Of a stretch of 64,000 nucleotides of DNA, positions 58,501 to 63,586 are shown in pieces; position 1 is the stretch's first letter; each line of letters begins with the position of its first letter. The stretch lies in NCBI RefSeq assembly GCF_003019035.1, contig NZ_CP027448.1; one strand, given 5' to 3'. This DNA comes from Escherichia coli (GTDB lineage: Bacteria > Pseudomonadota > Gammaproteobacteria > Enterobacterales > Enterobacteriaceae). Position numbers: made by a program.

Positions 58501-61500
58501 CAACTGGAAGTCCAGATACGGCGGCATGGAAACTTCTGATATTAAAAAAATAAAGGATCTTGAGGACGAGAACCGCCGTCTCAAACAGATGTTTGCTGAC
58601 CTGAGTCTGGAAAACCGGACTCAGTATCCGTCAGGCCTGCCGGAGTCTTAACCTGAGCAGAACGGTTTACCATTACCGCCCGGATACCACGCGTGATGAA
58701 CCCGTTATTACCGCCCTGCAGGCTGCGGCTGAGCGATACCCACGATACGGCTTTCCGAAGCTTTTCCAGATTCTGCGACGGCAAGGATACTCGTGGAATC
58801 ACAAAAGGCTCCACCGTATTTACTGTCTGCTGAAGCTGAATTTTCGCCGTAAGGGCAAACAGCGACTGCCGGTACGCAATCCCTCACCACTGGCTACGCC
58901 AGAAGCGCTGAACCAGAGCTGGTCTGTCGATTTTATGCATGATGCGCTGGCCTGTAGCCGTCGTTTTCGCACGTTCAATGTCGTTGATGACTTTAATCGC
59001 GAGGCGTTATCGATTGAAATCGATCTGAATCTGCCAGCTCTGCGAGTGGTCCGTGTACTTGACAGGATCGCGGCAAACCGAGATTATCCGGTCATGCTAC
59101 GCATGGATAATGGTCCAGAATTTATCTCTCTGGCGCTGGCTGAATGGGCAGAGATACACGCAGTAAATGGAGTTCATCCAGCCGGGTAAGCCGACGCAGA
59201 ACGCTTTCATTGAGCGTTTTAACAGGACATACCGTACAGAAATACTCGATTTTATCTGTTCAGAACGCTGAATGAAGTACGGGAAATTACGGAGAAATGG
59301 TTATCAGAATATAACTATGAACGCCCGCATGAATAACTGAACAATATGACACCGGAGGAATACCGACTTCACCATTATTTGGCCGGATTCTCAAAAAATG
59401 CATGGAACTAAAACGGGTCTATTTACAGTTCCGTCACGAGCGCTCGGAATTCGCAGTTACAGTGGACTCTCACCTGTGATAACGCTCTTTATAGCATAAC
59501 CGTTACGGGAGTTAGCTCCCGGTTTGGACTGATTTTTTAATACACGAGATAATGTGTCATCTCTGCATTGTGTGAAGCTTCAACACTTGGCTTTTTCAGC
59601 AGACGACTAAACTGACTTTGATGCTATATTGAACATATCTGTACTATATCCTGAGTGTACTGCCGGAATGACCTTCCAACCGTGTTGACGAACTCCTGCC
59701 TGGGAACGTAGTACTCACAACTAAATAAGTGTCAATACGGAGCTCCATTAAAGCTTATTATTTATTTTTATCCCATCAAAAATAATATATTTCAATGCAA
59801 TACTATCAATGATATACTTTTTATTACGTTATGTGGCAAAAAATTAATCATCAACATCTTAAAATATTACCATATATAATATTTTAACAATGACAACCCT
59901 GAATCTATAAGATATATCCAATACTGAATGGAATGGATAAATTATATTATTATAAAACATATTCTGTTATTTAATGTATATCACTTCCATCTGATACAGA
60001 TATAAGCTTTAGAAAAATTCCATTCCCATCCGCCAGACAGGATTCAAAAACATCTACCCCATAATGTTTCATAAGAAAATTCGCCACAACAGCTATAACG
60101 TGTAATCCGTCCGCAGGAGTCTTACATTCCATCATTAATCGCTCAATTATTCCGTTAACTGTATCATAGTTAACATCCATACATAGGTAATCTGCCCCTC
60201 CTCTGGGTAAATTATTAGCAGACATATATTTCTCCTTGTTGCAATATTATAAGTGATTTTTTAATATATACAATATATCACAATAATAATCATGTCCTCA
60301 AAAATATAATGGTATTTTTATTAATATGTATTCTTACAAATTTGTTATTACCCCTAACCGCTTCTATGAATTCACTCTTCCGTAACCTATTATTTTGGCT
60401 ATACAGTATCTCCTTCGTAGTAAAAGCCACTCCCGCTGTCCATCTGTAATATATTCCTCCCCCATCACAGCCAACCATCGTTCAGAAGCCCTGCGCCAGC
60501 ATCCTGCAACCTCAAGTTTCAAGGCAATCATATCCTCCACAGTCTCCATTGTTCTCTTCCGTGTACTCAAACTCACCTACCAGAATTTTATTTAATCGAA
60601 TCGGAATTAAAGAATTACCTGTTCCAGACTGAAATATTCATCCTGAAACAGCTTTGTCAGCCCGCTTAATTTGTTTCAGCCTGAGCCCCTCATTCTGGTC
60701 CATCATCAGCTCAATACAAACTCTTTACCACCCAGACAGGACAGGTCATGAACAATATATGACATTATGGAATACCCACTCTGAACATTAGCTCATACAG
60801 TAGTTATAAACAGCATGAGTTTCCGCGTTATAGATCCCGTTTTTACAGTCATACAAAAGGGACATTGTAAGTAAAAACCTCCAGTGATACTGTTATCCAT
60901 ATTGTATCGTCCTCATAGAGGAACTTATACCGTGAAACAAAACCTATAAAACTTGTACAATAGGGACTCATCCTCACGACCTTGCCATAGCCCATTTACT
61001 TCTAGCAATCCCGGATTAAAATTCATAATAAACTCTTCATCTTAGATAGCATATTAATAAAAAGGAAAATCTTAGTAAGTAACAACAAATCAGGTAACTG
61101 AAGGATTAATTCTACACCAGATTCCCTACATATCCATTCGCCAGACTATAACAGCCCCCCATATACAGTTGTCAAATGAACTGCTACCTAGCAGAAAGAC
61201 TCTGTGATATATAATATGTTTTGCACATATAGGATATGTGTATACATCCTGAACAATAAGGAAAACATCGCTTTTATCCAGACCATATCCAAAGCCAGCT
61301 GAAATAAAACAGCAGAATATTATTCTCTTCTGTTTGCACTAAATAAACAGCCCTCCTTAATTACAACCATACAAAAATATTACTCTCATTCGATAAGAAG
61401 GCAATTAAACATAAGTTACAATTGTGATAGATGCTGATCTTTTTAAGAGTATATAATGGAAGAAAAGAAAAAAAATTGAGATGCATCACAAAATAATCAA

Positions 61501-63586
61501 CAGTACATGAGCAGATACTGTAATTAATATACAGTGCACAATATGGAACATTGCTGAACTACATCATCCTCCACAAGGAAAGATCTGAAAAAAATCTATC
61601 CCGTGCTAATCACACCATCTATTATTCTACTGCCTATACCACAGGATACGTATTTTTATGCTATAAACTATACATCTAAAATATCAGAAATAAATCTGAT
61701 GTTTTTACATTTAACAAATCAGGCATTCTGTACAGAAATATATTATCATTTATTATTTTACTCTTAATGTATCTTATTACCACAAATAATAAGTAGTAAA
61801 AACATATAGCAGATATCTTTGCATAGACAAGAACTTACCTATTACCACTTCTATCCTGAATACCATACTGTTTTAACCACTGTAAGGGGGTGACTGAGTA
61901 ATATTTTCTGAAACTATGAATAAAATACGACAGGCTATTATATCCACAATCCTTGGCAATAACAAAGGTATTACAATTACCGCTTTTCATAAGACTTATC
62001 GCCTTTTTCATCCTTACTTCTGTGATTATCTGGCTGAATCCTGTACCTTCACTATGCAGTTTTCTTTTAAGCTGGCTAGCACTTATACATAAGACTGAAG
62101 CAACATCAGACAGATACCACTTCTTTGCTGGAGCTGCGGCAACAATGGCTTCAACGCGCAGTGAATAGTTATTCAGTCCATATGACAACACAGGTAGTAA
62201 CTGTTTTTGTTCATTAAGATAATCCAGCAATACAAATAATGCAGACTCATAAAGGTTAACATTTTTCTTTTGCTCCACAAGTGGCATCAGCGAGTTCAGA
62301 AAAGTACCATAAGTTTCCTTTCTAAAAAAATAATTTTTCCTGTCATGTATGCATAGAACATCAGCATCCCTGAGCCTAATATACAGATAGTCACTGATTA
62401 TATTACATGGTATATCAATAAACATAACACACCGCTCATCACCCATAATAAAATGCTGAACATCATTTCTTTTAATAAGTAGCACTTCATTCTTATTAAA
62501 ATCAATATATTCATTGTTAAACAAAATACAAAATGATCTTAATGTAATAGCAAAACAATATGGAAACATATAGTACAGGTGTTATTTATAAACATTCGTC
62601 GTTTTTAATATAGTTCAAATACTATTTTTATCACTATATTAAAAGGATTTAATCATTAGTAAAGTAACATAGCAAATATTCCAGTATACTTACATATAAG
62701 TACCATCACTTACCTTCATCCAGGATATTGTAAGCACACTATATTCATCTCCTTTTAGTACAATATTGATTCGTAATACATTCCTTCTTTCATGCGATAC
62801 GGCCATTTTTTGAGTATTTTCACTTGATTTTCTGATATGTTAATTTAAGTAAGATGCAGTACTTCAACTAAAAAATTTTATCAATCTTATCCAGCTTTTA
62901 TTGTTCCCATCAATGACTTAATTTTTAAATGGTAACAGATGAATGTTAAGATAACATTAAGATCCTATTAATAATATGGATATCTCCTTCCTATTGTGTT
63001 TTTGATCCTTACGAACAACAGTTCTCTATGTTTCAACCTTGGCATTAAGAATATCTGAGCACCATTTTATCATTTTATCTACAGTTCCACTAAATAAAGC
63101 AAGACGTACATACTGCATGTCATCCATACTACGCTGTTATACCTGCAGACATCTTTCATATTGCGCATTATTTTCGTGTACGAGGTGTTTTATGATGTTG
63201 CTGAGACCATTGCAACAGCAGAAACTCATGGACAGAGCGATTGCTACAACATTAAAAATGTGTTTCATATTCTTACTCATAAATCAGGCCTAACGAATCA
63301 TACTGATAATAAACATTATATAATTTTTTTGATAAAATTTTCATATATTAACAAAATCGGATAGTGTTATACCCCTTTCTGACACTGATATTTTCCCATA
63401 ATTTTCTTGTGTATTTTATATTCATCAACTGATATAAGCAATATGACCACTATTTCCCTCAGGGAAAACAAAGGCATAACGAAACTCTTGTCAGTGCATT
63501 AAGCAACTGTCTTGAACGTAAACGATTCGTCCCATTCTCCGTTATTTCTGAGCATCAGCATCGCGTTCAGGATTGTCAGCAGTTTA

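Follow-up and report, generated by a model that had tools for sequence, protein, structure and literature searches.

A gene for an AraC-family regulator, designated AraC1, lies in a long AT-rich block of an E. coli plasmid, and raises the question what such a regulator controls when no obvious target operon adjoins it. We analysed the block within a window of 64,000 nucleotides (the whole stretch of DNA studied, from contig NZ_CP027448.1) of an enterohaemolysin plasmid of cattle E. coli. The reading that we prefer, with a probability of about 60%, is that the block is a decayed mobile regulatory island in which AraC1, a short PerC-family protein and the small protein Orf84 are intact and selectively maintained.

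The AT-rich block and the island it resembles

Low G + C values (26–38%) span approximately positions 59600–63400, between flanks of about 50%; the island remnant has a G + C content of 33.1%, versus 42.2% for the entire window. IS debris is present on both sides, as read from the annotation of the near-identical plasmid p1RM8082 (Table 1). This agrees with the initial annotation, which had placed an AraC-family regulator in an AT-rich block between IS remnants, and the two small ORFs that it reported at 59971..60225 and 60364..60576 were both found. It had called these ORFs unannotatable, which holds for the first (orf84) in Pfam, NCBIfam and PADLOC, but not for the second, a member of the PerC family. 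The regulator does lie between IS remnants, but it is not an isolated gene and its neighbours are not anonymous. It has survived from a recognisable island with the gene order yfdX-araC1-ibrA-ibrB-perC-orf84, so the original cis partners of AraC1 can be named.

Table 1. Features of the AraC1 locus and of the second ibrAB pair (window positions)
Feature	Position	Strand	Basis or remarks
Intact IbrA, 408 aa, copy A	1921..3147	+	tblastn and BLASTP; WP_032215004.1 in p1RM8082
Intact IbrB (ParB-like), 214 aa, copy A	3132..3776	+	90% identical to O157-type IbrB; PGAP WP_032215003.1
TnpB fragment	58130..58305		annotated in p1RM8082
IS3 pseudogene	58385..59411		annotated in p1RM8082
IS256 fragment	59460..59617		annotated in p1RM8082
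Island remnant (copy B)	59945..63460	-	homologous to intact yfdX-araC-ibrA-ibrB-perC-orf84 islands
orf84, acidic orphan protein, 84 aa, pI 4.6	59971..60225	-	strong AAGGAG ribosome-binding site
Short-form PerC-family gene	60364..60576	-	Pfam PerC (PF06069), 58.2 bits vs cutoff 22.6, E 1e-15
ibrB 3' tail remnant, codons ~175–206, frameshifted	60628..60724	-	tblastn, two frames
ibrA pseudogene remnant (PAPS-reductase-like), codons ~43–243	60768..61318	-	blastn, 67–71% to intact ibrA
Conserved 34-nt block TGTTGATTATTTTGTGATGCATCTCAATTTTTTT, CRP-like TGTGA-N6-TCAAT core	61469..61502	-	upstream of dead ibrA
AraC1, 244-aa AraC/XylS-family regulator, GadW/YdeO/AppY sequence class	61835..62569	-	intact ORF
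Candidate sigma-70 promoter of AraC1	62607..62634	-	-35 GTGATA, 16-nt spacer, -10 TATATT; 9/12 consensus matches
yfdX pseudogene remnant (periplasmic YfdX family)	62712..63268	-	tblastn with intact L017 and L027 YfdX, 41–43% identity
Transposase pseudogene	63499..63880		annotated in p1RM8082

Intact islands, some of which have another AraC gene beyond orf84, were located via orf84 and AraC homologues. Further plasmid-type contigs carry them, and copies intact up to perC are found on bovine E. coli chromosomes; such a chromosomal copy is present in at least 10 complete genomes of bovine, buffalo or pig-farm origin and in two more without a recorded source. The limits of the remnant in our window were set by blastn against loci L017, L021 and L027 (from 63483/63459 down to 59944/59948). 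Of 5,426 complete genomes of E. coli, only 6 have the exact block, and each of these comes from cattle or a farm; five of the six plasmids encode an identical (100%) AraC1 protein, and that of the remaining plasmid is 99.2% identical. AraC1 is paired with a YfdX-family gene in every intact island. Approximately 1,350 genomes contain ibrAB-perC modules without AraC1, so AraC1 is not generally needed for these modules. On pVir-type (cnf2) plasmids, AraC1 homologues with 65–66% identity have only an IbrB fragment alongside. In the searchable literature (Sandt et al. 2002 being outside this scope), no description was found of yfdX and AraC1 upstream of ibrA with orf84 downstream of a shortened perC.

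Copy B has three dead genes among the six of the island. The tblastn alignments of the yfdX remnant contain in-frame stops and at least one frameshift; the counterpart in L009 consists of three ORFs, two adjoining and one across a gap, which are colinear on Pfam YfdX (positions 1–47, 82–113 and 125–148). The ibrA remnant (32–33% identity by tblastn, with many in-frame stops) has lost its start codon, ATG having become CTG followed by TAG, and the same lesion is present in L005. An internal deletion of approximately 950 bp continues from ibrA into ibrB. At the ibrB remnant, PGAP predicts a frameshifted partial hypothetical gene in p1RM8082, and the DNA resembles the ibrB-perC junctions of about 2,100 E. 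coli genomes. The G + C content of ibrA is 46% in intact copies and 36% in the pseudogene. The DNA is AT-rich as originally described, but a portion of what had been taken for promoter DNA is dead coding sequence of yfdX, ibrA and ibrB; the locus shows that an AT-rich block resembling promoter DNA can be dead genes.

The 34-nt block upstream of ibrA, TGTTGATTATTTTGTGATGCATCTCAATTTTTTT, has 0–6 substitutions in every lineage, whereas the surrounding intergenic region is poorly conserved. It is unique in the window, where approximately 0.01 matches are expected by chance. A role as shared operator was rejected, as no second copy was found in the window when 3 mismatches in the core pattern or 6 substitutions over all 34 nt were allowed. 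An Rfam scan at a permissive threshold gave a single chance match (VqmR, E 0.54), and a search for repeats yielded only short chance matches.

Class and fold of AraC1

AraC1 is not a known pseudogene: its frame is uninterrupted over 244 aa and it is annotated as a CDS in both the GenBank and RefSeq records. Its N-terminus (MFPYCF...) is common to all homologues. The double HTH, whose absence would have refuted the initial assignment, is complete, with all 15 invariant columns of a 17-sequence class alignment present and with Pfam matches to HTH_18 (E 1.9e-15, profile positions 2–80 of 80) and HTH_AraC (E 2.4e-13, in two stretches). Sequence and structural model together predict a working transcription factor that belongs to the short, two-domain AraC proteins, with an N-terminal beta-rich domain and the double HTH. 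Both hexamer positions of the candidate AraC1 promoter are kept across lineages (the -10 of L017 is TATAAT). A sigma-70 scan found 25 promoter-like sites, not enriched over shuffled sequence (23.4 ± 4.6), and a terminator scan found only 2 weak terminators.

The regulator had been called Rns/AggR/PerA-like, which alignment did not bear out. PerA is 32% identical over 125 aa, Rns is matched by HMMER only at query residues 96–232 (Rns residues 117–259, E 3e-15) and AggR and VirF give 25–28% by tblastn; the PerA match is limited to the DNA-binding domain, and those of AggR and VirF to the C-terminal half. The full-length BLASTP matches are GadW (31% over 235 aa, GadW residues 12–236) and YdeO (32% over 234 aa, YdeO residues 14–241). 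GadX is 36% identical over 153 aa, and AppY and a lambdoid-phage AraC are approximately 29–31% identical. The top NCBIfam matches are HilD, GadX and YdeO (~1e-27), and residues 22–241 of the 253-position YdeO profile are aligned, but the scores of 96 bits for GadX, 92 for YdeO and 96.8 for HilD miss the equivalog cutoffs (500, 348 and 354, respectively) by a factor of 3 to 5. Judged by sequence, AraC1 is a paralogous subfamily and not an orthologue of GadX, GadW or YdeO.

These relatives suggest that AraC1 could be an acquired acid/envelope-stress regulator that feeds the chromosomal GAD/hdeAB circuit, and that the neighbouring yfdX was originally its target in periplasmic stress. In the model, the DNA-binding domain fits that of GadX (3mkl) with 0.9–1.2 Å rmsd at 39–40% identity, the constant pairing with yfdX in intact islands fits a stress target, and PatE and PsrB offer a precedent (PMC10877973). 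However, the identities to GadW, YdeO, GadX and AppY are only 29–36%, below equivalog level as noted, the probable PsrB from OI-57 matches AraC1 over the DNA-binding domain only, and yfdX is dispensable, being dead in the window, in L005 and in L008/L009. We therefore regard this role as possible but rather unlikely.

With the structural model of AraC1 (AF2, pLDDT 81), Foldseek retrieved CsvR, Rns and ToxT over approximately 245 aligned columns (E 3e-11 to 3e-7), with a TM-score of 0.42 because the orientation of the domains differs. This two-domain match would be compatible with a virulence activator of the Rns/AggR/PerA type that controls the AIDA-like autotransporter and heptosyltransferase, the SPATE-type protease and the enterohaemolysin operon of the plasmid. 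In addition, AraC1-family genes co-occur with heptosyltransferase and AIDA-like autotransporter modules on two plasmid types (the window plasmid and one pVir-type plasmid), and in chromosomal islands the module lies between the F17 fimbrial operon and a YadA-like adhesin. However, no adhesin or toxin neighbour is conserved across all lineages, and the co-occurrence may only mean a shared plasmid backbone; the F17 operon was found neither in the window nor in the 36 kb that surround the regulator of a pVir-type plasmid. At sequence level, only the DNA-binding domain resembles Rns and PerA. AraC1 thus falls outside the Rns subfamily, so that a search for Rns-type motifs was not justified, and in the model the Rns/ToxT-type architecture is a resemblance of fold, not membership of the subgroup. 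We consider such an activator doubtful.

The surviving genes and a second ibrAB pair

The reading frames of AraC1, the short perC and orf84 are intact, and all three genes evolve under purifying selection. For AraC1, dN/dS was 0.12–0.20 in every comparison, including the homologues of pVir-type plasmids (0.12–0.19). Between the window and L005, which have the same loss of the ibrA start codon, it was 0.14 at a dS of 0.40, and selection has therefore continued long after the death of ibrA. Values for the short perC and orf84 were 0.25–0.36 and 0.13–0.29, respectively. In several lineages the gene has persisted after its neighbours decayed, which implies targets other than these; its continued low dN/dS is consistent with the earlier suggestion of a regulon in trans.

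The three genes might instead be leftovers of a dying island that have no current function and are not yet degraded. The death of half of the island genes, the IS debris all round, the loss of a conserved module from the short PerC (see below) and the absence of an obvious Shine-Dalgarno sequence before AraC1 all agree with this. The selection seen on AraC1 since ibrA was lost and on orf84, the near-identity of the AraC1 protein among the six plasmids and the drift of the pseudogene parts to lower G + C contents argue against it, and we consider it improbable.

The short perC has three possible starts: GTG at 60576 (70 aa), ATG at 60549 (61 aa) and ATG at 60531 (55 aa). The protein aligns only to positions 2–50 of the 90 of PF06069. 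In an alignment of the PerC family, the forms from the window, L017 and L021 stop approximately 10 residues past the conserved YC motif and lack the C-terminal module (~...A-x-x-x-L-x-x-M-G-...-F-R-...), a conserved third in EPEC PerC, Pch and ibrB-linked PerC. The window protein may, on this comparison, be inactive despite its dN/dS of ~0.3; its 71% identity to the short form of L021 extends across all 70 aa, C-terminus included. PchE was considered and set aside as a different, prophage-linked gene.

An AraC-family gene followed by a PerC-family gene on the same strand could also represent a divergent perABC operon, as on the EPEC EAF plasmid. This was refuted: a tblastn search with PerB gave nothing better than E 0.15, AraC1 matches PerA over the DNA-binding domain only, and the DNA between the two genes is ibrA/ibrB debris. 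Moreover, the PerC belongs with the ibrB-linked PerC proteins (68% identity, versus 33% to EPEC PerC), and the known host, RM8082, lacks bfp and is LEE-negative (PMC9729726), so that ler, the classical PerC target, is absent. The probability left to this reading is negligible.

Homologues of orf84 form four clusters, restricted to Escherichia, with 77–98% identity, and in plasmid-type islands the gene is always downstream of the short perC. A HMMER search of 1.84 billion representatives retrieved its own cluster and one credible distant protein of 97 aa (E 7e-4); a match to a eukaryotic repeat protein was spurious. The 4.6-kb contig that carries the 97-aa relative gave no clue to function. No match was found in Pfam, NCBIfam or PADLOC, and the AF2 model of Orf84 is unreliable (pLDDT 57). 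An ANR (AraC negative regulator) identity for the small ORFs was rejected, the sole match (E 0.047) being on the PerC ORF.

The plasmid has a second ibrAB pair, copy A, in which the overlapping ibrA (PAPS-reductase-like/DUF3440) and ibrB (ParB-like), remnants in copy B, are intact. Its IbrA is 93% identical to O157-type IbrA and 86% to the island type; in a scan of intact IbrA and IbrB, PADLOC detected only a weak similarity to BrxP/DndC-like PAPS reductases. Window positions 1938..3893 match L016 3334..5286 (blastn, 88%) until the homology stops 41 nt into perC (~3893), followed by IS debris. Retention is thus reciprocal, with ibrA-ibrB-perC' in copy A (1921..3893) and ibrA'-ibrB'-perC-orf84 in copy B, so that, as far as the sequences indicate, the plasmid would keep one working copy of each gene. 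This could be coincidence in a plasmid heavily scrambled by IS elements.

Possible targets and comparison with known systems

On the preferred reading of a decayed island with maintained genes, the most likely role of AraC1 in intact islands is activation of the AT-rich promoters next to it, namely its own and that of the ibrA-perC-orf84 region with the 34-nt block. In the window plasmid it may still drive perC and orf84 via the dead ibrA leader, with IbrAB function supplied by copy A. By analogy with the mobile-element regulators PatE, PsrA/B and AppY, it would also regulate promoters at other loci in trans; the likely output is surface/adhesion genes, stress genes, or both. PatE, PsrA and PsrB, AraC-like regulators of prophages, control gadE/hdeA and LEE in trans, and psr genes are carried along with Pch (PerC-family) genes (PMC10877973). 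The genes ibrB-perC-hyp3 are co-induced on adherence of STEC to host cells (PMC7649339), and IbrAB activates the Eib immunoglobulin-binding adhesins (Sandt et al. 2002, as cited in PMC7649339).

A more speculative proposal, which we put forward tentatively, is that AraC1, the short PerC, Orf84 and IbrAB form an undescribed regulatory circuit, specific to ruminant E. coli, that switches on surface adhesins (F17, YadA/Eib-like and AIDA-like), with Orf84 as a small partner of the AraC/PerC regulators. On this view, selection for the circuit as a whole would account for the survival of exactly one functional copy per gene across the two wrecked island copies.

Acquired AraC-like regulators (PatE, PsrA/B, AppY, Rns, AggR) rewire stress and adhesion programmes of pathogenic E. 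coli. The AraC1 subfamily, uncharacterised and found largely in cattle-associated strains, including LEE-negative STEC, and on cnf2 (necrotoxigenic) plasmids, is kept by selection even where all its surroundings decay. Its targets, if found, could explain part of the ruminant colonisation by these strains.

GadW, YdeO and GadX of E. coli K-12 acid resistance are the closest characterised sequences, are of similar size (242–274 aa) and have in common with AraC1 a signature in both recognition helices (S-x-S-x-L-K-[KR]-K-L and GY-x-S-x-SYFI). In contrast, AraC1 is plasmid- or island-borne and has yfdX and ibrAB-perC as neighbours, not gad or hde genes. PatE, PsrA/PsrB and AppY are, like AraC1, short AraC-class regulators on mobile DNA, and the joint travel of psr and Pch genes (PMC10877973; OI-57 layout) resembles the association of AraC1 with perC. 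However, AraC1 forms its own subfamily (65–100% identical internally), the alignment with the probable PsrB covers 110 aa, and the islands that carry AraC1 are plasmid-borne or chromosomal, whereas PatE and the Psr regulators lie in prophages.

Rns, CsvR and ToxT are activators of fimbriae and toxins with solved full-length structures, and the fatty-acid pocket residues are H20/R75 in Rns and K31/K230 in ToxT. The AraC1 model likewise predicts a beta-rich N-terminal domain joined by a helical linker to a double HTH, but the sequence similarity is confined to the C-terminal half. In EPEC perABC, PerA activates per and PerC activates ler. Here, too, a virulence plasmid has an AraC-family gene with a PerC-family gene downstream, which suggests a possible regulator-to-regulator cascade, although our locus has no PerB, AraC1 is not PerA and the PerC is the ibrB-linked short form. 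The IbrAB island resembles both copies on the plasmid, copy A being 90–93% identical in protein to O157-type IbrA/IbrB and copy B having remnants of the pair followed by the linked perC; the island type of the window differs by yfdX and AraC1 upstream of ibrA and by orf84 downstream of a shortened perC. Set beside these systems, the AraC1 locus is a real but fairly ordinary addition to the known class of mobile-element regulators, and is not in conflict with established knowledge.

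The AraC1 regulator and its relatives

The AraC-family gene proposed in the initial annotation is real. Its product of 244 aa covers the entire Pfam HTH_18 profile (E 1.9e-15), and the Pfam profile HTH_AraC aligns to it in two stretches. In an alignment of 17 sequences both helix-turn-helix units are complete and keep all class-invariant residues; the gene is intact. The top NCBIfam profiles were HilD, GadX and YdeO (E about 1e-27), but the scores of 92-97 bits lie far below the equivalog cutoffs of 348-500, and AraC1 is therefore orthologous to none of the three.

A local BLASTP search was performed against reference proteins from K-12, pMAR2 and a lambdoid phage. 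AraC1 was 31% identical to GadW over 235 aa, 32% to YdeO over 234 aa, 36% to GadX over 153 aa, 29% to AppY over 167 aa and 31% to the AraC protein of the lambdoid phage over 238 aa. The match to PerA (32%) was confined to 125 aa, the DNA-binding domain, and the idea of a per operon gave a negative result. Searching the sequences of solved structures, the DNA-binding domain of GadX was the best match (E 3.6e-19), followed by Rns, CsvR and ToxT, all in the C-terminal half of AraC1. An AlphaFold model built from the 17-sequence alignment (pLDDT 81) matched CsvR, Rns and ToxT over the full length in Foldseek (E 3e-11 to 3e-7), with a TM-score of 0.42 because the domain orientation differs; the DNA-binding domains of the model and of GadX superposed to about 1 A and were 39-40% identical. 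The earlier label, Rns/AggR/PerA-like, thus holds for the fold class and not for the sequence family.

AraC1 founds a subfamily of its own. Ruminant E. coli are the source of nearly all its relatives, which are 88, 81, 77, 74 and 65% identical to it. No description of the subfamily or of the yfdX-AraC-ibrAB-perC-orf84 arrangement was found in the literature searched, which did not cover the original IbrAB paper. Two records of identical DNA differ in the gene start, which is an ATG in one (244 aa) but an internal GTG in the other (216 aa); the first 28 residues of the 244-aa form are conserved family-wide.

The decayed island and a second ibrAB copy

The AT-rich block around AraC1 had been drawn correctly, as its limits coincide with those of homology to intact islands (about 59945 and about 63460). 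The G + C content is 26-38% across about 59600-63400 and near 50% in the flanks; the block as delimited has 33.1%, versus 42.2% for the whole window. The IS remnants noted earlier at both sides are confirmed by the annotation of p1RM8082, the near-identical plasmid of E. coli RM8082, with IS3, IS256 and TnpB pseudogene fragments at one side and IS66-type transposase fragments at the other.

Intact islands were reached via contigs carrying orf84 homologues. Compared to these, the block (copy B) reads yfdX'-AraC1-ibrA'-ibrB'-perC-orf84, in which a prime denotes a dead gene (see table), and its ibrA remnant has an internal deletion of about 950 bp. The G + C content of ibrA is 46% in intact islands and 36% in the window, that of yfdX 41% and 32%, respectively. 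AT content has risen in the pseudogenes, and some of what had been described as AT-rich promoter DNA therefore consists of coding sequence that is now dead. AraC1, a short PerC-like gene and the gene of an orphan small protein are the survivors of a decayed regulatory island of IbrAB type.

Features of the window, with the corresponding genes of intact islands (numbered in island order) and dN/dS by the Nei-Gojobori method
Feature	Position	Strand	State in the window	Form in intact islands	dN/dS
Copy B, yfdX	63268..62712	-	remnant; in-frame stops, at least one frameshift (alignment to islands)	gene 1; 190-209 aa, Pfam YfdX	
Candidate AraC1 promoter	62634..62607	-			
Copy B, AraC1	62569..61835	-	intact, 79% aa identity to island forms	gene 2; 244-246 aa	0.12-0.20 (all pairs)
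34-nt block	61469..61502	-			
Copy B, ibrA	61318..60768	-	remnant; start lost (ATG to CTG, then TAG), many stops	gene 3; 409 aa, PAPS-reductase-like/DUF3440	
Copy B, ibrB	60724..60628	-	remnant; 3' tail only, frameshifted	gene 4; 212 aa	
Copy B, short perC	60576..60364	-	intact	gene 5	0.25-0.36
Copy B, orf84	60225..59971	-	intact	gene 6; orf82/84	0.13-0.29
Second AraC gene (AraC2)			absent	gene 7; some contigs only	
Copy A, whole span	1921..3893	+			
Copy A, ibrA	1921..3147	+	intact, 93% to O157-type IbrA		
Copy A, ibrB	3132..3776	+	intact, 90% to O157-type IbrB		
Autotransporter C-terminal beta-barrel end	90..365	+	gene continues past left edge		
DUF1778/GNAT toxin-antitoxin-like pair	6196..6953	-	IS elements either side		
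Secreted alpha/beta hydrolase	7344..8843	-	499 aa		
AIDA-like autotransporter	52892..56422	-	1176 aa		
O-heptosyltransferase	56434..57609	-			

AraC2 lies at the far side of the island (7437..8204 in the plasmid-type contig L017; 14378..15058 (-) in the chromosomal L027). It is about 31% identical to AraC1 and closest to AppY and the lambdoid-phage AraC; plasmid-type contigs carry it in the same orientation, chromosomal islands in the reverse one.

The two small ORFs exist as claimed, but had been called unannotatable, which is true only of orf84. The other belongs to the PerC family (Pfam E 1e-15, the match reaching no further than position 50 of the 90 in the profile). The ibrB-linked PerC of O157-type islands shares 68% identity with its product, as against 33-36% for EPEC PerC and a prophage Pch. 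It covers the entire length of the short forms encoded in two plasmid-type contigs, L017 and L021 (71% identity across all 70 aa), and the C-terminal module conserved from EPEC PerC to Pch is missing in all three. For the same DNA, GenBank gives this gene as a CDS and RefSeq as an 'incomplete' pseudogene.

The orf84 product is an acidic orphan of 9 kDa, with a strong ribosome-binding site. Its homologues form four clusters only, all in Escherichia, and an exhaustive HMMER search of 1.84 billion representatives gained a single credible distant relative. The AlphaFold model was unreliable, and structure and distant homology of orf84 were uninformative or negative. The same applies to the idea of an ANR-type anti-activator, to promoter statistics, Rfam and repeat searches, and to a PADLOC search.

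A tblastn search of the window with the island proteins revealed a second ibrAB copy (copy A) of O157/ECOR-9 type, about 58 kb away from the AraC1 block. Its ibrA and ibrB are also intact in the p1RM8082 annotation. Homology to the O157-type island ends 41 nt into perC, followed by IS debris, so that copy A reads ibrA-ibrB-perC' (perC truncated) and the plasmid carries two partial island copies. Since blastn detected no similarity between copies A and B, they come from different lineages. Together they leave each island gene with one working copy; this reciprocal survival suggests selection for the whole set, but chance could explain it as well.

The hydrolase gene near copy A resembles by eye, in the N-terminal part, a hydrolase at 137..1642 in the comparison locus L009, located about 1 kb upstream of yfdX'-AraC1. 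This likeness hints that both copies may derive from one larger ancestral region.

Retention of AraC1 and genomic setting

An identical ibrA start-codon lesion is common to the window and the comparison locus L005. Between these two, AraC1 shows a dS of 0.40 and a dN/dS of 0.14, and has therefore been maintained long after the death of ibrA. In L005 an extra deletion took the ibrB tail and perC, with orf84 kept, and cnf2/cdt-III plasmids (pVir type) have nothing left of the island but the AraC gene and an IbrB fragment, showing that the value of AraC1 to the cell is independent of its cis neighbours. AraC1 is intact, under selection and has outlived its neighbours; it is an uncharacterised, selectively maintained regulator of the short two-domain AraC class. 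The interpretation in the initial annotation was only partly right; for the regulon in trans that it put forward, this independent retention is the best available support.

Among 72,556 plasmids, only 6 contained the 3.9-kb block at ≥99% identity, and among 5,426 complete E. coli genomes the number was again 6; all carriers were large IncF plasmids from cattle, manure or farm environment. The window is colinear with p1RM8082, whose cargo includes ehx/hly, katG and several autotransporters. This is the enterohaemolysin plasmid ('pEHEC') carried by a cattle isolate of STEC O121:H7 that is LEE-negative and LAA-positive (PMC9729726). At least 10 complete genomes, with cattle, calves, buffalo or a pig farm as source, have an intact yfdX-AraC1-ibrA-ibrB-perC module on the chromosome, as do two further genomes of unrecorded source. 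About 1,350 of the 5,426 genomes contain ibrAB without AraC1, often with perC.

In three loci from bovine and pig-farm E. coli (L026-L028), the chromosomal module lies beside potE, directly downstream of the F17 fimbrial operon (f17A-chaperone-usher-f17G), and is followed by the second AraC gene in reversed orientation and by a YadA-like trimeric autotransporter. The arrangement resembles an adhesin island equipped with a regulator cassette of its own. F17 was found neither in the window nor around the regulator on a pVir-type plasmid, and the adhesin link of the AraC1 island is only a lead.

The AIDA-like autotransporter and O-heptosyltransferase genes immediately adjoin the IS debris, and the pair also occurs on a pVir-type plasmid with an AraC1 homologue. 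Repeat-number variation leaves the autotransporter gene 108 nt shorter than its counterpart in CP057971; in p1RM8082 it is split into a pseudogene and a CDS. The autotransporter end at the left edge is called a 5'-truncated pseudogene in p1RM8082.

Proposed mechanism and precedents

The steps of the mechanism were inferred from family behaviour and synteny. AraC1 would bind AT-rich promoter DNA and activate transcription, that of its own island first. Both hexamers of the candidate AraC1 promoter are retained across lineages. Upstream of ibrA, a block of 34 nt (TGTTGATTATTTTGTGATGCATCTCAATTTTTTT) whose core is CRP-like (TGTGA-N6-TCAAT) is conserved in all lineages, within poorly conserved intergenic DNA; the window contains no second copy. 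This block would mark the likely control region of an ibrA-perC-orf84 unit, which on this plasmid may consist of a dead leader, perC and orf84. AraC1 would be expected to have targets elsewhere too.

The known host, which is LEE-negative (PMC9729726), lacks ler, the classical target of PerC. When STEC adhere to epithelial cells, ibrB and perC are induced together with the gene that follows them, and IbrAB is reported as an activator of Eib adhesins (PMC7649339). The finding would gain interest if the targets of AraC1 were ruminant-colonisation adhesins.

The best-documented precedents are PatE, PsrA/B and AppY, AraC-like regulators from mobile elements whose action in trans on gadE/hdeA extends through these to virulence genes; psr and Pch genes travel together (PMC10877973). 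The OI-57 prophage of EDL933 (L025) contains a GadW-like AraC gene, probably that of PsrB (25275..25988), and a Pch gene of 104 aa (32706..33020), an AraC-plus-PerC pairing on another type of mobile element. AraC1 and this probable PsrB are not close relatives, and the precedent of PatE, PsrA/B and AppY is therefore one of analogy, not of membership.
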